A program made the translations under genes and the position numbers. This document shows, piece after piece, positions 1 to 22,265 of a stretch of 64,000 nucleotides of DNA. The stretch is taken from NCBI GenBank assembly GCA_029565395.1, contig JAKQOG010000069.1, positions 14,322 through 78,321 of the forward strand. Reading direction: 5' to 3'. The DNA comes from Candidatus Hydrogenedentota bacterium. Its GTDB lineage: Bacteria; Hydrogenedentota; Hydrogenedentia; Hydrogenedentales; CAILVY01. The notes beneath the pieces were generated by a model. It searched no databases. It saw only the letters and a list, made by a program, of their open reading frames with translations, and had not been told where the DNA came from. Each line of letters starts with the position of its first letter. The first letter of the stretch is position 1.

Positions 1-144
1 ATTGATCTATTGTGAATATTACGGCGTGTGGATATTTTGTCATACGGCAGCAGGAGAAACTGTCTGAGAATTCGTAATCATCCGTTTTAAGGAATGGGGA
101 AACGATTCACCATGCATAGTGGCAAAAAACGATTCATCCCCGCA

Positions 145-640
145 GGGGATGGACAACTCAGCCCAGGATAAGCGAAGCGCCATCCTGGGTGTGTAGGATT
201 TCCCTATGGAGCATACTCTGAAAGAGTTATATATAATATTTTAACCACTGGCGCCCAGCTCCAATGAAAACTTCCGTTGCCAATAAATTTTGCTGATTGA
301 TCAAGACACGATGGCCCACTCTATGCCTGAACACTGTATAAAACTCTTACAGAGTGGTATTGTTTGGGGTGACATTGCATACCCAGGATGGCGCTTCGCT
401 TATCCTGGGCTGAGTTGTTGAATTCCTTCGGAATTTTGAGAGCGGTGATTATGCAGAGTGGTATTACATACTCAGGGTGGTGAAGCGCTTACCCCTGTTT
501 ATTTGCGTCTTGTGGAAAACCATGGGAATAATCCATTCTAAAATGTTGCATATGACCCATAAAATGTCTGGGCTGAGTTGTTAAATCCCTTCGGGATATC
601 TTCGCCTTTCTATGCGGTGTAAAATAATTCTCAGACAGCC
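145..640. repeat. Cluster of nested inverted and direct repeats that form hairpins (candidate structured ncRNA or MITE-like element)
   Basis: The 37-nt unit ACCCAGGATGGCGCTTCGCTTATCCTGGGCTGAGTTG occurs at 152-196 in reverse orientation and at 378-420 in forward orientation. It is itself a hairpin (CCAGGAT...ATCCTGG). Forward copies are followed by UUCG-tetraloop hairpins (GAATTCCTTCGGAATT at about 421-436, ATCCCTTCGGGAT at about 583-596). A variant hairpin CAGGGTGGTGAAGCGCTTACCCCTG lies at 471-496. The outer inverted repeats TGTCTGAGAAT (61-71) and ATTCTCAGACA (628-638) bracket the region. No ORF is supported on either strand. Confidence 0.5.
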
Positions 641-678
641 TCTGGAGCCCTCCTGTGGCGGATAAACCTCGCCCTCCC

Positions 679-699
679 ACGCAAGGTGCGCGTTTTTTT
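679..699 (+). terminator. Weak intrinsic-terminator-like element (short stem CGCA-AGG-TGCG followed by GTTTTTTT)
   Basis: A 4-bp GC stem with a 3-nt loop is followed by a T7 run, immediately downstream of the hairpin-rich region and upstream of hicB. Confidence 0.3.
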
Positions 700-833
700 A
701 GCAGCAAATTGTATTCACATGTTGCATTGGCAATCCTGCTAGATTCTGCGCTCGCGAAGATACGTTGGAAAGAGGGATAGTGAAAGATCCAGGTTAAGGA
801 ATGATACAATATTGAAGAACAAGGTCCCAGTCT

Positions 834-1055
834 ATGAAACAGTATGAATTCACGATAATTTATGAACGGGATGAGGAGGGCCGTGTACTGGCCCTGTGCC
901 CGGCGCTTCAAGGGTGTTATGCGGAGGGGAAAACTGAAGAAGAAGCCAAAGAAAATATTCTGGAAGCGATTCGAGCTAATATTGAATCCAGGCTGGCGCA
1001 TGGTGATCCCATTTATGAGGAAATTGGAACGGTAAAAGTGGCGATAATGGCATGA
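834..1055 (+). CDS. hicB: HicB-family (UPF0150) type II antitoxin; no hicA partner is visible
   Basis: The 73-aa ORF begins MKQYEFTIIYERDEEG and contains ALCPALQGCYAEGKTEEEAKENILEAI, typical of the HicB N-terminal RNase-H-like fold. No ORF of 60 aa or more lies upstream on this strand. Confidence 0.65.
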   Translation: MKQYEFTIIYERDEEGRVLALCPALQGCYAEGKTEEEAKENILEAIRANIESRLAHGDPIYEEIGTVKVAIMA

Positions 1056-2336: not shown

Positions 2337-3572
2337 ATGGCATCGAAATCCTTTGCGCTTTCCAGGGAATTTTTGCGGGAACGCTGTGATTATTGCGGTG
2401 TGTGCCTGAATTGTTGTCCCGTGATGGCATTGCCGCTGGATCAGGCGCGGAGGGAGATAAAGGCGTTGGCGGAAGGAGAACCGTCGTGTGTTTTAGCGGA
2501 ATGTACGGGGTGCATGGCGTGCAACGGGTATTGCCCGACAGGCGCCAATCCCCACACATTGATCCTGTCCCGTTGGGGGGAGCGATGCCGGAAGGAAGGG
2601 ATTCCGCAGCGCGCTTCACTTGTGCTTCCGTATCAAAAACCTAATTTATACACGCTGCTGATTGAGCGGTTGCCGGAAAGCGAGCGAGCGCTTGTGAATG
2701 AATGGCGGGAGAACTGGCTTCACCCGAAGGATGCATCCATGATGATCTTTGCGGGCTGCAATCTGCTATTGATGCCGGGGATGGCGGATTCCAAGATATT
2801 TTCGGGGGTTCCAATTTTTGGCGCGCCGGAATTGTGCTGTGGCGAACCGTTATACCGCATGGGGTATTGGGAAGCGGAGCAGGCAGTTGCCCGGCATATT
2901 CAAGAGGCTTTCCGGCGCATACCGGTGAAGACATTGATTTTTCCGTGCCTGGCGTGCCTGCACATATTTAAGCATGTATATAAAGATGTATTTGACGTGA
3001 CCTTCGATTTCGAAATGATCTCGATGGAGGAGTGGATTCTAAACCGGATTGATCGTGGGGAAATCACCGTAACACCGCTGAACAAGCGTGCGGTGATTCA
3101 TGATAATTGCTGGCCCAAGGCCTCGGGCGATGTTTATTTTGACCTTGTGCGGACGCTATTGGATCGGTTGGGGGTTACCGTGGTGGAACCGGAGCATACC
3201 CGGGAAGATGCATTGTGTTGCGGGATGTGCGCGCCTGCGGCTCAATTCCGATTACGGGATGCGCTGCGGACCGCGAAGGTGCGGCTGGAGGAATTTGAGG
3301 GGGCGGATGCGGACATGGTGATTGATTATTGCGGGGGGTGTGACTGGTTGTTTGCCGTGGCCCGCCGGTTGTTATTCGCGAAGAGCGCCAAGCCCATGTA
3401 TCATTTGCTGGATGTGGTGCGGATGGCGGCGGGCGAGCCGCCGAGGCATGAAAGCCCGGCATTGGCCAAGGCGATTGTGAGAACGATTGGACCACGTCTT
3501 GCCGTAAGCTATATGACGCCGGGGCGATTTCATATCAGGCGCATTATGGATCAGCCGGTGCAGCCTCTTTGA
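2337..3572 (+). CDS. Paralogous Fe-S oxidoreductase of the HdrD/GlpC type (2x[4Fe-4S] + 2xCCG)
   Basis: Motifs CDYCGVCLNCCP and CTGCMACNGYCP, then ELCCGEPLY and ALCCGMCAP. 411 aa. The start lies 3 nt after the stop of the preceding paralog. Confidence 0.75.
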   Translation: MASKSFALSREFLRERCDYCGVCLNCCPVMALPLDQARREIKALAEGEPSCVLAECTGCMACNGYCPTGANPHTLILSRWGERCRKEGIPQRASLVLPYQKPNLYTLLIERLPESERALVNEWRENWLHPKDASMMIFAGCNLLLMPGMADSKIFSGVPIFGAPELCCGEPLYRMGYWEAEQAVARHIQEAFRRIPVKTLIFPCLACLHIFKHVYKDVFDVTFDFEMISMEEWILNRIDRGEITVTPLNKRAVIHDNCWPKASGDVYFDLVRTLLDRLGVTVVEPEHTREDALCCGMCAPAAQFRLRDALRTAKVRLEEFEGADADMVIDYCGGCDWLFAVARRLLFAKSAKPMYHLLDVVRMAAGEPPRHESPALAKAIVRTIGPRLAVSYMTPGRFHIRRIMDQPVQPL

Positions 3573-3574
3573 AG

Positions 3575-4672
3575 CTATGCGCGGTCCAACGGCTGAACAT
3601 CTTCTTCGAAATAATGATGCAACGATTTTGGGAGCGCGTGATAATCGAGGTGTGCAATATCCTTGGAAAAATCGTTGGAATTGGTGGTGTTCCAGAAGAG
3701 GACGGTTTTATCTTTCAAGTGACCCGCGCGCGCGTCGCCAATCAAGGCGGCAAAAGCTTTCCCGGTATAGGTGCCTTCCAATTTCAGGTTTTCTGTGTCG
3801 GCCGCCATGTGAACGGCCTGCATGGATTCGCGCGTGAATAGAGCATATTCCTCGCCAAAATAGTCGTGACGCAGGTTGTAGGTATCAAGGGAAAACGGAA
3901 TGGTTGGGATGGCGGAGCAATGATTGCTGAGCAGCCGGTTGGCGCCTTGGAAGAAACGTTTTGCTTTTCTGAGTGAGACGAAACTCATGGGCGTTACACG
4001 AATAGCCATGATACGGGTTCGTAATCCGGCCAATGATACCCCCAGGGCTAATCCCACGGAGGTTCCCATGCTTCCGCAGGCCACATAGAGAACGTCCGGT
4101 TCGGGGAGTTCGCCGGCCTTTACTTGGCGGGCGAGTTCAAGTGCGGCGTTTACATGCCCCAGCACGCCAAGGGCGTTGGAACCGCCTGGGGGAATGATGC
4201 AGGGCATTCCCCGGCCCGTGGCCGCCAGGCGGGCAAGTTGGACCAGCGCGCCTGCAACCATGATAGGGATGTTTGGGTAGTGGTGAAATTCTGCACCCTG
4301 CAAATGTGTCAAGAGTAAATTCCGGCGAAGGTAATGGGCGTTGGCTTGTGGCATCAACATGCAAATAGTGTTGAGGCCGAGTTGTTTGGCATAGAGCGCG
4401 GTAGCGAGGGTGTGGGTGGAGCCTGCGGCACCGAAGGTCAGAATGGTCTTTTTACCGCGATGGACGGCTTTTCCCAGGGCGAATTCCAGAATGCGCGGTT
4501 TGTTGCCGCCATAGACCGGGCCGGTGTAGTCGTCCCGTTTCACATATAGCTTTTCCAGCCCCAATGCTTTTCCCAATGTGGGGAGGGATTGCACTGGTGT
4601 GGGCAATGTTGCCAGAGATACATGGGGAATATGTTCATATACGCCGGGATACTGTTCAAATAATGGGATCAT
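3575..4672 (-). CDS. PLP-dependent enzyme of the ACC deaminase / D-cysteine desulfhydrase (DcyD) family
   Basis: LYVKRDDYTGPVYGGNKPRILEF and TFGAAGSTHTLATA match the KRDD...GGNK.RKLEF...GA.QSNH pattern of DcyD/ACC-deaminase fold-type II enzymes. Confidence 0.8.
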   Translation of the reverse strand: MIPLFEQYPGVYEHIPHVSLATLPTPVQSLPTLGKALGLEKLYVKRDDYTGPVYGGNKPRILEFALGKAVHRGKKTILTFGAAGSTHTLATALYAKQLGLNTICMLMPQANAHYLRRNLLLTHLQGAEFHHYPNIPIMVAGALVQLARLAATGRGMPCIIPPGGSNALGVLGHVNAALELARQVKAGELPEPDVLYVACGSMGTSVGLALGVSLAGLRTRIMAIRVTPMSFVSLRKAKRFFQGANRLLSNHCSAIPTIPFSLDTYNLRHDYFGEEYALFTRESMQAVHMAADTENLKLEGTYTGKAFAALIGDARAGHLKDKTVLFWNTTNSNDFSKDIAHLDYHALPKSLHHYFEEDVQPLDRA

Positions 4673-4786: not shown

Positions 4787-5722
4787 ATGGCGAAGATTCT
4801 TGTGACAGGCGGGGCGGGATTTATCGGCTCGCATGTTGTGGATACATATGTAGCGGCGGGACATGAGGTGGTGGTGGTGGATAATCTTCATGCGGGGAAA
4901 CGGGAGAATGTAAATCCCCGGGCCGTGTTTTGTCACATGGACATTCGCTTGAGTTCGCTGGAATCGGTGTTTGAGCAATTTCAGCCAGAGTATGTGAATC
5001 ATCATGCGGCGCAGATCGACGTACGGCGGAGTTTGACGGAACCGGTATTCGATGCGGATGTGAATATTTTGGGGTCGATCAATTTGCTGGAGAACTGCAT
5101 TAAATATAAGGTGACCAAATTTATTTTTGCATCGACCGGCGGGGCGATCTATGGCGATCCGAAGAATTTGCCGGCCTCGGAGGAATGTCCGCCCAATCCT
5201 AAATGCCATTACGCCACGAGCAAATTGGCGTTTGAATACTATCTTCAACTGTACAAAACCCTGTATGGCCTGCGGTATACCGTGCTGCGGTATCCGAATG
5301 TATTCGGGCCGCGTCAAAGCCCGGAGGGGGAGGCGGGGGTGTGTTCGATCCTCGCCGGCCTGATGCTGGCCGGGATACAGCCGACGCTCTATGGCTTCGG
5401 GAAAGCATTGCGGGATTATGTATATGTGGGCGACATCAGCCGGGCAAACAAGATTGCGTTGGAAAAAGGGGATGGTGAGATTCTTAATTTGGGTTCGGGC
5501 AAAGGGACGTCGGTCCGGGAACTGTTTGATATTATCCGTGAATTTTCCGGTTTTGAAGGGGAGCCGCAATTGAAGCCCTTGCGCCCTGGAGAAATAGAGA
5601 GGGTGTTTATAACGGGAGAGAAGGCCGCGCAGATCCTTGGCTGGCGGCCTGAAATACTCCTGCGTGAGGGATTGCGCAATACGGTCGCGTACATCCGGCA
5701 GCAGCAGTCGATCAATAACTGA
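4787..5722 (+). CDS. NAD-dependent epimerase/dehydratase (UDP-sugar 4-epimerase-like SDR)
   Basis: MAKILVTGGAGFIGSH Rossmann motif and the Y-x3-K motif (YATSKLAFEYY). The SD sequence AAGGAG at 4773-4778 sits 8 nt upstream of the ATG at 4787. The ORF-track start at 4769 is probably too early. Confidence 0.9.
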   Translation: MAKILVTGGAGFIGSHVVDTYVAAGHEVVVVDNLHAGKRENVNPRAVFCHMDIRLSSLESVFEQFQPEYVNHHAAQIDVRRSLTEPVFDADVNILGSINLLENCIKYKVTKFIFASTGGAIYGDPKNLPASEECPPNPKCHYATSKLAFEYYLQLYKTLYGLRYTVLRYPNVFGPRQSPEGEAGVCSILAGLMLAGIQPTLYGFGKALRDYVYVGDISRANKIALEKGDGEILNLGSGKGTSVRELFDIIREFSGFEGEPQLKPLRPGEIERVFITGEKAAQILGWRPEILLREGLRNTVAYIRQQQSINN

Positions 5723-8112: not shown

Positions 8113-8219
8113 GTCTATTGTGGTATAATGGCCATGCGTTGCGGTGAAGGAAGATCTGGCAACGGTGAATGGAGACCGTGGTTATTGAGGAACAGGAAGA
8201 ACGGAAAAGGGTGCGGAAC

Positions 8220-9995
8220 ATGAGAGCAAATGTTATCTTTTGGCCAGTGATTTTGATCATTTGTTTGAGTGCGGGGGCCTTCGCTCAGGAAAATCCGTGC
8301 AACATCGTTGTGTCACGCGATCTGCCCGCCATGTATATTCCAGGAGGAACGGTGGAGGTGGAGTTAACCCTGAGTGGAGGGGAATCCTGTGAAATCCTTG
8401 CCTTGGGAACGTATGAAGCGATTCCGGATGGCTGGACCTTTGTATCGATGAGTCCGATCAGCGGTACGGCGCCCCAAGTTTATCCGGCGGAAGGCGATTC
8501 GGACTTGCTTGAGTTTGCCTGGTTCACGATACCGGCGTTGCCTTGTACTTTTTCATATGTTCTGAATATTCCCTGGGATGCACACGGGGAGGAAACGTTC
8601 ACCGGGAACGCTGAGTACCGTTTATTGGGCGGGCCGTTAATGTCGGAGGAAACGGTTTCGACGATAGCAGGGCCTGAGACCGAGGGCCAGGGGGAGGGGG
8701 AAGCCTGGGGTGAAGCAGAAGGCCAGGGGGAGGGCGAAGCCGGAGGTGTTGGAGAAGGCCAGGGGGAGGGAGAAAGCGGAGATGAGGGGGAAGATGAAGA
8801 AGATGGCGCTGGTGTTAACATGCAATTTGTGCGAGAACTTTCCGTGGAGCGTTACACGCCGGGTCAGCCCCTTGACGTTACGATCACGATAAGTGTTTCG
8901 ACGGCGGCAGGATTAACGGCCGTGGGGTTCTATGAAAGCTTGCCATCGGGATGGGTTTTTAATGGGTTGCGCGGAATAACCGGCGAACCGCCGATTATAG
9001 CCCCGGCGCCGGGAGATATGGGCGTGTTGGAATTTGCCTGGATCCAAATTCCAGGGTTTCCCTACACCTTTGGTTATACCGTCACTCCTCCCGAAAGTTC
9101 AGGGGGTTTGGCGTCTATATGGGGTCAGACTGAGTATCGCACCAATGGGGGGGCATTAAAATCCCCAGTGGTCATCTCTGAAATCAGCGCCGTGGAAGAA
9201 CAAACGGAAGGGGAGGGAGAAGAGGGGGAAGGAGAAGTTGGGGAGGGGGAGGGCGAGGGCGATAATCCCTCAGGAATATCGTTGGATCAACAAATAGAGG
9301 CGGAAGAATATACTCCAGGCGAAGCGTTGGAAGTTGTCATTACCATAGATACAGAGACGCCGCAAGGATTGCGGGCGCTGGGGTTGTATCAGACCCTTCC
9401 AACGGGGTGGGTGTTTAATGGCATGCGTGCCATCAGCGGGGATCTTCCCCTGGTGGCGCCTGAACCCGGCGCCATGAACTATCTGGAATTCGCATGGATC
9501 GCCATGCCCAATTTCCCCTATGTGTTCGCCTACACTGTTACGCCGGCGGAGGATGCCTGCGCGCATGTTCAGATCCATGGCCGGATTGAATACCGGACCA
9601 ATGGCCCCGCGTATTTTACGCTCATTGTCGTTACCCGAATTGCCGGGCCGGGATGTGAACCCCCAAGGGTGATGTATCCCATCGCAAGGGTGTTATATCG
9701 TCATTTTAATTGTGCGGATGCCAATGATGACGGCTATCTCAGTTTCCATGAGGCATGTGAGATTATTCCGGGGCTGACCGCGGGCCAGTTTGCGCAACTC
9801 GATGTCGATCAGGATGTTCAGTTGTCCCCCTTGGAACTTTCCACGTATTTATGCGAACACGGCCCCGCTCATGGGTGCCTCGGTGGCGATTCTGTCTTAA
9901 TTACGTTATGGGACACGGTTAAAGAGTATCTTGGCGATTTAGTCGTGTTCATCTTGTTTATATTTTCATTAATTGTAGGCTACCGGCTGGTGTAG
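8220..9995 (+). CDS. Secreted, membrane-anchored repeat protein: signal peptide, 3 copies of a ~120-aa domain with no family assignment (one A-type, two B-type), Gly-Glu linkers, EF-hand/dockerin-like Ca-binding pair, C-terminal TM anchor
   Basis: Signal peptide MRANVIFWPVILIICLSAGAFA. Domain copies carry LGTYEAIPDGWTFVSM...LEFAWFTIPALPCTFSYVLNIP, then GFYESLPSGWVFNGLRG...LEFAWIQIPGFPYTFGYTVTPPE, then GLYQTLPTGWVFNGMRA...LEFAWIAMPNFPYVFAYTVTPAE. Linkers are EGQGEGEA... and [10 protein letters not shown]. The C-terminus has DANDDGYLSFHE...LDVDQDVQLSPLEL followed by the hydrophobic LVVFILFIFSLIVGYRLV. Confidence 0.7.
   Translation: MRANVIFWPVILIICLSAGAFAQENPCNIVVSRDLPAMYIPGGTVEVELTLSGGESCEILALGTYEAIPDGWTFVSMSPISGTAPQVYPAEGDSDLLEFAWFTIPALPCTFSYVLNIPWDAHGEETFTGNAEYRLLGGPLMSEETVSTIAGPETEGQGEGEAWGEAEGQGEGEAGGVGEGQGEGESGDEGEDEEDGAGVNMQFVRELSVERYTPGQPLDVTITISVSTAAGLTAVGFYESLPSGWVFNGLRGITGEPPIIAPAPGDMGVLEFAWIQIPGFPYTFGYTVTPPESSGGLASIWGQTEYRTNGGALKSPVVISEISAVEEQTEGEGEEGEGEVGEGEGEGDNPSGISLDQQIEAEEYTPGEALEVVITIDTETPQGLRALGLYQTLPTGWVFNGMRAISGDLPLVAPEPGAMNYLEFAWIAMPNFPYVFAYTVTPAEDACAHVQIHGRIEYRTNGPAYFTLIVVTRIAGPGCEPPRVMYPIARVLYRHFNCADANDDGYLSFHEACEIIPGLTAGQFAQLDVDQDVQLSPLELSTYLCEHGPAHGCLGGDSVLITLWDTVKEYLGDLVVFILFIFSLIVGYRLV
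8680..8815 (+). repeat. GAAGGN-type hexanucleotide repeat tract that encodes a Gly-Glu acidic linker
   Basis: DNA (GAGGGCCAGGGGGAGGGG/GAAGCC...)n encodes ETEGQGEGEAWGEAEGQGEGEAGGVGEGQGEGESGDEGEDEEDG. The reverse strand gives a spurious Pro/Ser ORF (8480..8821). Confidence 0.6.
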
Positions 9996-10186
9996 CGAAA
10001 TTTTGATGCCAGAAGACGGATTGGCTTGTGAAGGGGAAAGGGGAAAACACAAGCGCTTTAACGTATTGAATGGTCCTATTGTGTTATAATTTGATTACTT
10101 GATGCGGAAACGCGCGCGTGTCGCTTTTTTAACCGCCGTCTGCGTTGGTTGAATGTACGAACACTATGTGGAATAAGGATTTGGCC

Positions 10187-11128
10187 ATGAAACCGAGCTA
10201 TGTGATGTGGGTAACCGTTCTGTTGGGTGGAATAGTCCTGATGCCGCAGGCAGTGGCGGAGAATCCATTGGGCATGACCCTGAGCAGGGAATTACCGGAA
10301 ACGTATACGGCGGGCGGCACGGTGGAGGTAGAGCTTACGCTGAGTTGTACCGGCGTGGATACAATCCTGGCCTTGGGGGCTTATGAAACCGTTCCCGCGG
10401 ACTGGACCTTTGTCAGCATGAGGGAAGTGAATGGTGCGAAGCCTCAGATAGGTCCGCAAGTGGGCGATTCCGGCACGCTGGAATTTGCGTGGTTTTCCAT
10501 TCCTGCCTTGCCTTGTACCTTTGCTTATACGCTGAATGTCCCCGCCGATGCCCAAGGGTTAAAAACCTTCACCGGGCAGATTGAATATCGCTTAGGCGGC
10601 GGACAATTGTTTTCCGATGACGAAACCTCGACAATTGTGGACGTAGTGACGGAAGGCGAAGGCGCAATAGAAGGCCAAGCCGAGGGCGAGGGCGAAGGCA
10701 TTGTTGAAGGCCAAGGAGAGGGCGAGGGGGAAGGCATTGTTGAGGGCCAAGCCGAGGGCGAAGGCGAAGGCATGACGGAAGGAGAGGCGGTTGATACATT
10801 GGCGGCGGCGGAGACGTTGCAGAATGGGTTTTCACAAGCGGATCAGAATGCGGATGGTTCGCTCAGTTTTGCAGAAGCCTCCACCTTTGCAGCCGGGCTT
10901 ACGGAAGCGCAGTTCAACGAATTGGACACTAATGGCGACGGCAGTGTGACGGCGGTAGAATTGGCGGCGTATATTGAAGCGAACACGCTGGTCTGCGGGT
11001 GCAATTGTAACAAAGCGGAGATGTATTCCGGAGATTGGTTTAAACGTTCCCTTGGCGATCTGTTTCTTGCCGGACTAGGCTTGGTTATTCTTGTGGCGAG
11101 CGCCAGAATGGGCCGGTATGGACGTTGA
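10187..11128 (+). CDS. Paralogous membrane-anchored surface protein: signal peptide, one A-type ~120-aa domain, Gly-Glu linker, EF-hand/dockerin-like pair, CGCNC motif, C-terminal TM anchor
   Basis: LGAYETVPADWTFVSM...GDSGTLEFAWFSIPALPCTFAYTLNVP...FTGQIEYR. Linker EGEGAIEGQAEGEGEGIVEGQGEGEGEG. Ca-binding pair DQNADGSLSFAEAS...LDTNGDGSVTAVELAAYIEAN. Then CGCNCNKA and the TM segment LFLAGLGLVILVASARMGRYGR. Confidence 0.7.
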   Translation: MKPSYVMWVTVLLGGIVLMPQAVAENPLGMTLSRELPETYTAGGTVEVELTLSCTGVDTILALGAYETVPADWTFVSMREVNGAKPQIGPQVGDSGTLEFAWFSIPALPCTFAYTLNVPADAQGLKTFTGQIEYRLGGGQLFSDDETSTIVDVVTEGEGAIEGQAEGEGEGIVEGQGEGEGEGIVEGQAEGEGEGMTEGEAVDTLAAAETLQNGFSQADQNADGSLSFAEASTFAAGLTEAQFNELDTNGDGSVTAVELAAYIEANTLVCGCNCNKAEMYSGDWFKRSLGDLFLAGLGLVILVASARMGRYGR

Positions 11129-20408: not shown

Positions 20409-22265
20409 TTATGCCTGGCCGTATTCGGGCAGGGTGGCTCCAGGCTGATCCAGCGAGATAGGAACGCCCGCATTGGTATATTTTTTGAGCACGAGGACTC
20501 TATAGGCCCTGCGGAAAGATTCCAGAATAACCACCACCACGCAAAACATAATGACGATAGTAAGGACGCAGTCAATGGTTCCCACCAGGAATTTACCGGG
20601 TTGTTTGATTAAGGGGAGGTAGTTGTGCAGGACGTTGAGATATCCGGCATACAGGGTGGTGACCGCCAGGAAGGCTTCGGGGATCAGGGTGACCCAGATA
20701 TAGCGGACTTTTCCGGCGTTGATGATGGCAGCGCCCGCCACGGCCAAAGCGGTGGTGGCGAGCAATTGATTGGCGGTGCCGAACATGGGCCAGATGGTGG
20801 AGATGGTGCCGCTCCAGATAAAGTATCCCCAGGAGAACACGACGAGTCCGCTGGTGAGCAGGGTGCCGAACATCCAGTCGGTTTTTTGGAAAGGTTTGTA
20901 GACCCGGCCCAGATATTCCTGGAGCAGGAAGCGGGCCACGCGGGTGCCGGTATCGATGGTGGTGAGGATGAAGAGGGCTTCGAACATGATGGCGAAGTGA
21001 TACCAGTAGGACATGAGCGCTTTCATGCCGGGCAACCCGGAAAAGATTTGTGCGAATCCGACCGCCAGGGAGACGGCTCCGCCCGGGCGGCCTGCGACGT
21101 TTTCGCCGACTTCTTTGGAGAGTTCGGCGAGGTTCACGGGGGTCATGTTCATGGCGGCGAATTTTTCCGGGGCCACGTTAATGGCGAAGTAGTCGGCGGG
21201 AAAGAGGGAGCAGGCGGCGATGAGGGCAATCACGCTGACGATGCATTCGACCATCATGGCGCCATATCCGATGATCCGGGTGTCGGACTCTTTGGTGATC
21301 ATTTTGGGGGTAGTGCCGGAGCCGATGAGGGCATGGAATCCCGAGACTGCTCCGCAGGCAATGGTGATAAACAGAAAGGGAAATAGTTTTCCAGGGATGA
21401 TGGGCCCGCCTCCATGCAGGAATTCCGGATTCAGGGCGGGCATTTTGAGGGTTGGATGCACCAGGAACACACCGGCAATCAGCAGGATGATGGTTCCGAT
21501 TTTCAGGTAAGAACTCAGGTAATCGCGCGGGCATAGGAGCATCCACACGGGCAAGACCGAGGCGATGAATCCGTAGAGAGCAATGGCGAGCACGATTCCG
21601 TTGCGTGAGAGGTTAAAGTAGGGTTCCAGGAAGGAGCCGGGAATGGCGCCGCCGATTATCACGGCTAACAAGACGCCGGTCACGCCTATGGCGCTGGCTT
21701 CAGCGATTTTTCCGGGACGTATCCGGTACATCCACAAACCGGTCAGGAGCGCCATGGGGATGGTCATGGCGATGGTGAAGGTTCCCCAGGAACTTTCCGC
21801 CAGTGCGTTGACGACGGCGAGGCCAAGACCTGCCAATGCGACGATGATAATAATGATGACGGCCACGGAAGCAATGGCGCCGGCGAGCGGGCTGACTTCG
21901 TGGCGCGCGATCTCCGCGAGGGATTTTCCGTCCCTCCGCATGGAGGCCACGAGAATGGTGAAATCATGCACGCCGCCCGCAATAAGCGCCCCCATGAGCA
22001 TCCACAGAAGGCCGGGGGCGTACCCGAATTGCGCGGCCAGCACGGGGCCAATCAGAGGCCCGGCGCCGGAAATGGCGGCAAAATGGTGTCCGAACAACAC
22101 GTATTTGTTTGTGGGGTGATAGTTCGTCCCATCATACATGGTTTGGCTGGGCACTTTTCGGGTATTATCCAGCGCCATGACTTTCGCCGCCAGAAAGGCG
22201 CTATAATAACGGTAGGATAAAGCTGTAAGGATCAATGCACCCAGGACAATCGGAACCGCGTTCAT
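20409..22265 (-). CDS. cstA: Carbon starvation protein A (peptide/pyruvate transporter CstA)
   Basis: [36 protein letters not shown] and [29 protein letters not shown] are near-identical to conserved CstA blocks. 618 aa and multi-TM. Confidence 0.95.

Follow-up and report, generated by a model that had tools for sequence, protein, structure and literature searches.

The stretch analysed here, called the window throughout, comprises 64,000 nt of a Candidatus Hydrogenedentota genome assembly (contig JAKQOG010000069.1, positions 14,322 to 78,321) and opens with the larger part (1-833) of an 882-nt intergenic region. Coordinates are window positions, with negative numbers for sequence upstream of position 1. 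The CstA protein encoded at 20409-22265 is 100% identical to an NCBI protein assigned to Candidatus Hydrogenedentes. In contig L001, which is identical to the window, an 816-aa gene ends 49 nt before the window start; on the other side of the region lies a hicB-like antitoxin gene, followed by two genes for CCG-domain Fe-S oxidoreductases. Here, we describe how the intergenic block is assembled from units of about 100 nt, each with three hairpins, which recur in several phyla and in other genomes flank a Y1 transposase gene. We propose that the segment from -35 to 679 is probably a non-autonomous, REPIN-like foldback element (REPINs being inverted doublets of repetitive extragenic palindromic, REP, units) that is mobilised in trans by a RayT-like Y1 transposase.

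A repeat block built from three-hairpin units

The first-pass annotation of this region, made from the letters alone, had described a non-coding block dense in nested inverted repeats and hairpins. This hairpin-rich block is real and far beyond chance; for the 28-mer of hairpin 1, for instance, no matches are expected by chance and two are observed. The block holds three copies of one unit and a decayed fourth. We number the hairpins of a unit from 5′ to 3′ as hairpin 0 (upstream), hairpin 1 (CCCAGGG...CCCUGGG) and hairpin 2 (with a UNCG-type loop). Unit A (134-235) lies on the minus strand and is delineated by a covariance model, R1, and by its fold, while units B (335-437) and C (509-600) lie on the plus strand and are delineated by R1 and by weak matches to the Rfam family RF01687. 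Units A and B stand back to back with a central spacer of 99 nt (236-334) between them. Their inversion explains the 37-nt unit that had been noted in opposite orientations: 153-193 and 378-418 match at 40 of 41 positions, the arms extend to 54 nt at 87% identity (140-193 and 378-431), and the unit is itself a stem-loop, CCCAGGAU...AUCCUGGG, as had been proposed. In unit A (fold z-score -3.6), hairpin 0 is ACUCUUUCAGAGU, hairpin 1 is CCCAGGAU..AUCCUGGG, and hairpin 2, CAUCCCC-UGCG-GGGGAUG, is followed by a U-rich tail. This minus-strand copy has its C(UGCG)G hairpin at 135-151, and a terminator-like site is found at 151-135 on the same strand. Unit B combines ACUCUUACAGAGU, the same hairpin 1, the linker CUGAGUUGUUGA and AAUUCC-UUCG-GGAAUU, and unit C combines a truncated hairpin 1 (CCCA..UGGG), the linker CUGAGUUGUUAA and AUCCC-UUCG-GGGAU. 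The C(UUCG)G hairpins reported after the forward copies are found at 421-435 and 584-596, and the reported variant hairpin at 471-496 turns out to be part of the decayed unit D (~454-520).

Outward of the units, the element continues into arms and terminal modules. As seen in contig L001, it starts about 35 nt 5′ of position 1, and the window copy extends from about -35 to 679 (713 nt). Its left terminal module, of which 1-56 lies in the window, starts with CGGGAGGGCGAAG and is also present at the ends of other copies; the long hairpin within it, CTCCTGCTGAGCCGTAAAACAAAAT...ATTTTGTCATACGGCAGCAGGAG (about -23 to 56), pairs as predicted in the whole-element fold. The left arm segment AAACTGTCTGAGAATTCG...AAAAAACGATTCA (57-133) contains the inverted repeat at 55-72, the partner of 626-643. 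This is the bracketing repeat previously put at 11 bp, and it is longer than that, with 13 nt exact (60-72 and 626-638) and 18 nt at 89% identity (55-72 and 626-643). On the right, the arm and terminus (601-679) carry ...AATTCTCAGACAGCCTCT (626-643), GGAGCCCTCCTGTGGCGGATAAA and the terminal motif CCTCGCCCTCCCA (667-679), the right terminus being the inverted complement of the left end. Between units B and C lies an extra plus-strand segment (438-508) with unit D, which is absent from other element copies. Folded as a single strand, the window element is predicted to form one imperfect end-to-end hairpin (-296 kcal/mol, z = -14), as is the copy in metagenome contig L078 (-335 kcal/mol, z = -22). 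If transcribed, it would place an imperfect hairpin of about 300 bp between the upstream gene and hicB.

Sequence 680-799 lies outside the repeat family, with no match in any other locus compared and a fold z-score of +1.2. It contains the run of seven T at 693-699, and the terminator-like stem previously placed at 679-699 does not hold up, as the stem is poor and the terminator scan left it unreported. The absence of a plausible open reading frame (ORF), in contrast, was borne out: the block holds short ORFs only, plus a 193-aa ORF running antisense through the hicB-like gene. No tRNA or tmRNA was found in the window.

How widespread is the unit? Scanning one genome per species with the pattern GGCTGAGTTGT-N6-CCTKCGG, which covers linker and loop, returned 65 loci, about 30 of which have the full layout of the window units: a small hairpin 0 preceded by UGUnnAAC, a spacer of ~25 nt, CCCAGGG...CCCUGGG, the linker CUGAGUUGUnnAAC and a UUCG or UGCG hairpin. 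The conserved single-stranded linker of the units reads GGGCUGAGUUGU. True members come from metagenome-assembled genomes (MAGs) labelled Planctomycetota, Acidobacteriota, KSB1, Verrucomicrobiota, Desulfosoma (Desulfobacterota), Nitrospira and Alloprevotella, the last two labels calling for caution because they rest on MAG binning. The remaining loci are chance or coding matches. Ten of them fall in one conserved Cyanobium/Synechococcus-type coding sequence (L012-L015, L023, L033, L038, L044, L050, L067), whose translation reads like what we take to be an RRM-type RNA-binding protein; two of these ten picocyanobacterial records bear the MAG labels Rhizobium and Bordetella parapertussis, apparently through contamination of the bins. 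Carriage by phages was considered and rejected, since two IMG/VR pattern matches score 16-18 bits with R1 and are not genuine units. The same set of loci contains a second, unrelated repeat family of ~110-140 nt at 84-89% identity (L034 5258-5396, L045 540-676, L057 530-643), which is common to the KSB1 MAG and the Nitrospira-labelled contig, two bins that may hold the same or related organisms; in the KSB1 MAG, a tmRNA gene (L034 151-510, 200.7 bits) is found ~200 nt away from the repeat cluster.

Model R1 (99 positions, 16 pairs) was built from 18 units of other organisms together with window units A and B, and the matches of B (75.4 bits, E = 4e-15) and A (74.8 bits, E = 6e-15) are therefore partly by construction; unit C scores 40.9 bits (E = 1e-7). 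Elsewhere in the 64 kb, R1 gives only a marginal 10-bit match (E 0.73) at 129-207 on the plus strand, over unit A but on the opposite strand. When 47 distinct units from several phyla are aligned, the modelled pairing holds in 96.6% of cells, and compensatory changes on both sides are seen at 12 of the 16 pairs; none of 500 shuffles reaches the observed values, and slid controls lie far lower. The hairpins are therefore under selection, and a multi-copy, covarying unit is the opposite of the single copy lacking covariation that would, according to the first-pass annotation, have meant random repeats. Covariation cannot, however, separate RNA from single-stranded DNA. A strand test, with 15 G-U against 8 A-C on the modelled strand, shows a weak bias that is not decisive. 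The earlier argument that UUCG loops imply function at the RNA level survives in part: a dedicated small RNA (sRNA) or leader is not borne out, as discussed below, while the UNCG-type loops keep an additional RNA-level effect of the units possible.

Dispersed copies and empty sites

A second scan, with a pattern specific to hairpin 1 of the window, retrieved 16 contigs from three metagenome data sets, which derive from anaerobic samples (Ga0116156, Ga0209311, ERZ795059). Each carries a copy that is 80-86% identical to window -35 to 436 and 95-100% identical to segment 567-678; window 567-642 is 100% identical to the copies in L071, L078 and L080. Beyond the element, these contigs have no similarity to the 64-kb window: their flanks are unrelated to it, and 14 of the 16 are distinct (there are two pairs of duplicate contigs). 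Together with the 47 aligned units, this describes a multi-copy extragenic palindromic unit with a selected hairpin, all placements of which are intergenic. Four contigs (L071, L074, L077, L086) end inside the element and Logan contig L002 starts at window 614, as expected when assemblies break at a multi-copy repeat, and the element thus explains assembly breaks at such sites in metagenomes of these organisms. BLASTP revealed no recurrent neighbour protein at the 16 loci; the only families shared overall are WD40/kinase and DUF1501, presumably common Planctomycete families.

In the other two-ended copies, the element measures 440-601 nt between the terminal motifs TGGGAGGGCGAGG...CCTCGCCCTCCCA. 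It consists, in order, of the TGGGAGGGCGAGG end, a long terminal hairpin, the arm AAACTGTCTGAGAATTCG..., a minus unit, a centre of ~90 nt, a plus unit, the arm ...AATTCTCAGACAGCCTCT and a terminal module running to CCTCGCCCTCCCA. Every two-ended metagenome copy is a minus/plus doublet with ~90 nt between the units, and the left arm segment 57-133 is kept in all aligned copies that reach that part, the arm-less L084 copy excepted. Whereas other copies join a B-type unit directly to the tail of C, the window copy is longer by an insertion of ~163 nt, comprising unit D and the 5′ portion of C, which is bracketed by direct repeats of CTGGGCTGAGTTGTT at 405-419 and 568-582. Alignment of the ~8 two-ended copies, whose ends are uncertain by 1-2 nt, showed no consistent target-site duplication; the copy search suggested earlier has thus yielded the dispersed copies and no duplications.

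The terminal modules also have a distribution of their own. The terminal motif occurs alone at L073 3728 and L082 2878, and a version of it, CGGGAGGGCGAAGCTCCTGCTGAGCCG (24 of 27 positions identical), is found at L020 147-173 in a Planctomycetaceae MAG, ~100 nt from a unit, so the arm modules may predate the Hydrogenedentes lineage. Some copies have a further outer module, TCATTGCGAGTCCCCCACCTCCTTCGGCG...AAAATGCGAGGT, inverted on both sides (L079 ~4400-4466 and ~4991-5060; L080 ~390-450; L084 ~3464-3530), which points to nested, modular repeats as in bacterial interspersed mosaic elements (BIMEs). Matches to the terminal motif as GGGAGGGCGARG within window 8692-10727 were rejected as unrelated, being coding repeats of low complexity rich in Gly and Glu. 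Such GGGGAGGGCGAAG-type 'GEGE' coding repeats occupy 8660-8800, 9190-9260 and 10660-10790, in a 608-aa ORF (8169-9995) and downstream of it, and give nine matches.

Outside the Hydrogenedentes element, gene-less inverted doublets in the orientation of A and B occur at ~15 loci in other genomes. The 5′ ends of their units face each other 7-110 nt apart, and the symmetry stops directly after hairpin 2. Units elsewhere are intergenic and often lie 5-100 nt after a stop codon; by a crude gene call, the surrounding gene pairs are co-directional in 15 cases, convergent in 6 and divergent in 3. An all-against-all BLASTP over 29 genome loci detected no recurrent protein family within 3.5 kb of gene-less copies.

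Do these features describe a classical miniature inverted-repeat transposable element (MITE), moved by a DDE transposase that recognises TGGGAGGGCGAGG...CCTCGCCCTCCCA, with the units as passengers or as an older nested element? The sharp conserved termini that bound copies of 440-713 nt, the terminal inverted repeats, the small size and the lack of a recurring ORF are all MITE features; the occurrence of the terminal motif alone (L073, L082) and near a unit in the Planctomycetaceae MAG would also fit, and the outer modules of some copies suggest modular nesting. We nonetheless regard this explanation as unlikely. A target-site duplication is seen at none of the ~8 two-ended copies, and neither a transposase of any kind that recurs near copies nor a parent insertion sequence with the same termini is found in the metagenome loci compared. 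Moreover, inverted symmetry extends over the full length of the element instead of being limited to its tips, doublets in other phyla end at hairpin 2 and lack these termini, and it is the internal units that have a demonstrated association with a transposase, as described below. The MITE-like insertion of the first-pass annotation therefore stands as far as absence from the site in two relatives, dispersed copies and inverted termini are concerned; we refine its identity to REPIN/BIME-like, which fits better than a classical MITE with transposase-recognised terminal inverted repeats.

The insertion is seen most directly by comparison with two relatives, L068 and L069, whose versions of the 410-aa downstream protein are 90% and 85% identical to that of the window. 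Both have 56-60 nt between the upstream stop codon and the hicB start, and R1 detects no units in this short intergenic region; hicA follows hicB in each (L068 4518-4957, L069 182-620). The window lineage has ~840 extra nt (-38 to 799) and has lost hicA, and the window junction shows only a 3-nt GTT microhomology and no target-site duplication. The unique sequence 680-799 is likewise missing from the relatives. On this comparison, the ~840-nt block is a lineage-specific insertion. The remaining hicB-like gene (834-1055, plus strand) encodes a 73-aa product that was assigned by Pfam with scores just below the cut-offs (UPF0150 26.7 bits against 27.3, HicB_lk_antitox 25.2 bits against 27); an exact look-up of this product returned no record. 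Only 46 nt separate it from the next gene (834-1101).

The empty sites bear on two functional readings of the block. One is that it is a cis-regulatory leader, a riboswitch or attenuator, of the hicB and CCG-domain Fe-S oxidoreductase genes, as the first-pass annotation had envisaged. The block is highly structured and lies upstream of these genes on the same strand. However, in the relatives the same genes have a 56-60-nt upstream region that lacks the block, the element adjoins unrelated genes elsewhere, and no match was obtained to any cis-regulatory family in Rfam. The empty sites contradict a leader, which is hardly credible. The other is that a repeat of mobile origin is now used by the host at the RNA level, as a 3′-end block of hairpins that protects or insulates and separates the upstream gene from the operon of hicB and the Fe-S oxidoreductase. 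A similar role has been described for some Escherichia coli REPs. The frequent position 5-100 nt after stop codons, the very large predicted hairpin energy and the UNCG-type loops would suit such a role, which is compatible with a REPIN-like origin. Nevertheless, the position bias (15 co-directional, 6 convergent, 3 divergent) is weak and comes from crude gene calls, and the close relatives have no element here, making host use improbable. Any effect of the element on its neighbouring genes is putative.

Units beside a Y1 transposase gene

What could move a gene-less doublet? In a Pyrinomonadaceae MAG (L016), two inverted units (1710-1801, minus; 2278-2368, plus) lie 477 nt apart, and the ORF between them (1793-2278) encodes a 151-aa Y1/HUH transposase (Pfam Y1_Tnp, E = 6e-24). 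The protein scores 55 bits with the NCBIfam IS200 model, equal to its cut-off of 55, carries the motifs DHVH and Y-I-A-S-Q, and has numerous homologues that JGI often names 'REP element-mobilizing transposase RayT'. At all five further independent loci, which encode homologues 68-84% identical to the L016 protein, the gene is flanked in the same way: the minus unit ends 13-22 nt before the start codon, the plus unit starts 0-15 nt after the stop, and the flanking units score 60-86 bits with R1 (E = 1e-12 to 1e-17). As these five were fetched as close homologues, the six loci effectively represent one clade. In addition, a truncated Y1 remnant, ..DCPALIVGGVEDHVHSL.. (..EDHVHSL..), adjoins a unit in a Planctomycetota MAG (L022). 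The central spacer of the window element (236-334) corresponds to the position of the Y1 gene in these versions, and tblastn found no Y1 remnant in it. Since the orientation of the units is the same with and without the gene, the doublet relates to the Y1 gene as a REPIN does to its RAYT.

The L016 locus shows a further feature, in that transposase and units are together bracketed by a 90-nt direct repeat (1616-1705 and 2402-2491, 96.7% identical). What is duplicated is the 3′ end of the adjacent epimerase gene, and the repeat is far longer than a usual target duplication.

By analogy with known IS200/IS605 and TnpA_REP enzymes, the hairpins would form when the DNA is single-stranded, for example at a replication fork, and a Y1 transposase encoded elsewhere in the genome would recognise them together with the linker or a foot sequence. 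Cutting and rejoining of the strand could then copy or move the doublet without a target-site duplication. In Hydrogenedentes, the doublet has acquired arm modules, namely the long terminal hairpin and the TGGGAGGGCGAGG ends, and the window copy additionally contains an internal partial duplication, units D and C. Absence of a target-site duplication is expected for HUH-type elements. Both the cognate Y1 gene in this genome and the single-stranded-DNA mechanism are parts of this scheme that we infer.

Several observations weigh against this proposal. The Y1 association involves a single Acidobacterial protein clade (68-86% identity) and one Planctomycetota remnant, and a Y1 gene is absent from the window, from 9 kb upstream of it (~73 kb in total) and from the 16 related metagenome loci, so that the cognate enzyme for this lineage is assumed. 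The units lack the 5′ GT[AG]G foot that serves as the canonical REP tag, and the sharp inverted TGGGAGGGCGAGG termini could be the sites that an unrelated transposase recognises. A DNA-level model also leaves unexplained the conserved UNCG-type loops, a feature typical of RNA. Finally, compared with L068, the window lineage has gained ~120 nt more than the element itself accounts for (680-799) and no longer has hicA, implying a local history of more than one clean transposition.

Could the units instead be small structured RNA genes, paralogous and acting in trans, which is how Rfam files the related family? Covariation is strong in all three hairpins. UNCG-type loops are a hallmark of stable RNA hairpins, and the units have UUCG and UGCG, with UACG and UCCG in the published seed; the slight G-U excess (15 against 8) points the same way, and unit A ends in a terminator-like hairpin and a U run. 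Other properties are difficult to reconcile with genes of this kind. The 5′ ends of back-to-back pairs are only 7-110 nt apart and therefore leave no room for promoters, promoter-like sites show no enrichment and are missing in front of B and C, and the apparent TATA boxes considered as divergent sRNA promoters align with the conserved UGUnnAAC of the unit. Most copies have no U tract after hairpin 2, some lie flush against a transposase gene, and close relatives have no units at the orthologous site. In copy number, clustering and the breaking of contigs, the units follow the pattern of a repeat family. We therefore consider sRNA genes very unlikely. The sRNA gene or leader put forward in the first-pass annotation finds no conservation at the orthologous site, no consistent promoters or terminators and no consistent neighbour gene, and the most likely identity of the block is parasitic mobile DNA, rather than a gene for a small RNA. 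In practical terms, this 0.8-kb candidate should be annotated neither as an sRNA gene nor as a riboswitch, but as mobile repeat DNA of one lineage.

Relation to Acido-Lenti-1 and to known mobile repeats

The Rfam scan suggested in the first-pass annotation leads to an orphan family. At gathering thresholds, the whole window gave no match, while a permissive scan of 1-1200 gave weak matches to Acido-Lenti-1 (RF01687) and otherwise noise; ribozymes, riboswitches and group II introns were not among the matches. The window copies at 556-598 (16.5 bits) and 404-435 (14.6 bits) stay below the RF01687 threshold of 37 bits. Nonetheless, all three copies have the RF01687 architecture of hairpin 1, GGCU, a 12-nt linker and a 5-bp hairpin 2 with a UUCG/UNCG or UUUCA loop, in the form of GGGCU, GAGUUGUnnnnn and a C(UUCG)G or C(UGCG)G hairpin spaced as in the Rfam model. 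Some members of the R1 family do pass, namely L052 817-861 (41.8 bits) and L091 767-814 (38.8 bits), many others reach 27-36 bits, and the transposase-flanking units reach 26.8-36.4 bits. The same loci bridge the two models from the other side, with R1 scores of 71.8 bits for L052 774-863 and 62.4 bits for L092 1895-1987 (36.4 bits in Rfam).

Acido-Lenti-1 was described from a seed alignment of 89 sequences, most of which belong to Lentisphaera araneosa and Koribacter versatilis, with the same GGCU junction, a linker such as GCUGAGUUAUGCCGUACCUUCGGUAC and loop types including UACG and UCCG (Weinberg et al, 2010; PMC2864571). Seed copies occur in clusters, where they are arranged in tandem and with alternating orientation, and the family was reported in Acidobacteria and Lentisphaerae, sometimes near group II introns (PMC2864571). 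Rfam classes it as an sRNA gene of unknown function, and the papers found to name it give no function; searching the literature with the sequence motifs returned only unrelated primer matches. The window block and Acido-Lenti-1 share GGCU at the 3′ foot of hairpin 1, the 12-nt linker (GCUGAGUUAUG.. against GCUGAGUUGU..), the UUCG/UNCG-type hairpin 2 and many clustered copies per genome. They differ in hairpin 1, which is extended in window units A and B and truncated in unit C, and in the extent of the unit, which here measures ~100 nt with an extra upstream hairpin and usually forms a back-to-back doublet, the Rfam model covering the last 46 nt only. The host is Candidatus Hydrogenedentes instead of Acidobacteria or Lentisphaerae, the unit acts like mobile repeat DNA on either side of a Y1 transposase gene rather than like an sRNA, and the group II intron link published for Lentisphaerae has no counterpart at the window block. 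Intermediates that pass the Rfam threshold, together with the same linker and junction, argue that the window copies are, by sequence, divergent members of the Acido-Lenti-1 family and that our unit is its extended form. This offers a testable function for an orphan family, with units that flank a RayT-like Y1 transposase gene and gene-less doublets in seven other phylum-labelled MAG groups. It is conceivable, although we advance it only tentatively, that the whole family, listed since 2010 as an sRNA, is to a distinct IS200-like RayT clade what REPs are to their transposases, and that this clade spread ~100-nt three-hairpin units and foldback doublets through many phyla (the seven MAG labels here, Lentisphaerae from the 2010 paper and Hydrogenedentes from the window), with UNCG loops perhaps reflecting selection at two levels, as single-stranded DNA substrate and as stable RNA hairpin.

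Among mobile elements, the IS200/IS605 group (IS608, ISDra2) and the gene-less palindrome-associated transposable elements (PATEs) combine Y1/HUH enzymes with subterminal single-stranded DNA hairpins and leave no target duplication. In contrast to our element, which has inverted copies of one unit, they have two distinct hairpin ends on the same strand; no tnpB is present here, and no conserved target tetranucleotide was identified.

Closer in taxonomic range are the rare 'class 3' TnpA_Y1 enzymes of Planctomycetes and Acidobacteria, flanked by 'atypical secondary structures' (Quentin et al, 2018; PMC6006769), and the tyrosine transposase genes flanked by terminal inverted repeats (TIRtron/TIRYT) in Acidobacteria, for example K. 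versatilis ORF1552, the repeats of which form a family (Di Nocera et al, 2013; PMC3733652). Their repeat families include one of ~600 copies in Solibacter usitatus (PMC6006769, PMC3733652). The taxonomic ranges overlap, K. versatilis being also a source of Acido-Lenti-1 seed sequences, and most of our units have CTGA after hairpin 1, resembling the CnGA foot, with the variants CTGG, CTTT and CTCA in partner arms. The reported foot, however, is on the 5′ side of the structure, whereas our CTGA is on the 3′ side of hairpin 1. Both papers are silent on Acido-Lenti-1 and on Hydrogenedentes. Compared by description, class 3/TIRtron and our unit family may be the same system.

The closest parallel is with REP, BIME and REPIN-RAYT systems (Bertels & Rainey, 2011; PMC3116915). 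Like these, our element is made of short extragenic palindromic units in many copies, which form inverted doublets folding into one long hairpin and mosaic clusters; the units flank a small Y1/HUH gene in the 'REPtron' layout, as seen in L016 and at five of five homologue loci; no target-site duplication is seen, and copies lie after gene ends. The differences lie in the size of the unit (~100 nt and three hairpins, against one hairpin of 20-40 nt in a REP) and in the foot, since none of the unit alignments has GTAG or GTGG 5′ of any hairpin, GT[AG]N following hairpin 0 in some copies only. The Y-x3-Q motif of the Y1 protein is unlike the class 2 RAYT signature and its IS200 match stands just at the cut-off (55 bits), the distribution lies outside Proteobacteria, and the Hydrogenedentes version has added terminal modules. 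In conclusion, the element at the start of the window is a divergent member both of the Acido-Lenti-1 family and of the REP/RAYT-type systems. It extends REPIN/RAYT-type biology well beyond Proteobacteria, and its three-hairpin unit provides a larger substrate for studying how HUH transposases read DNA structure.

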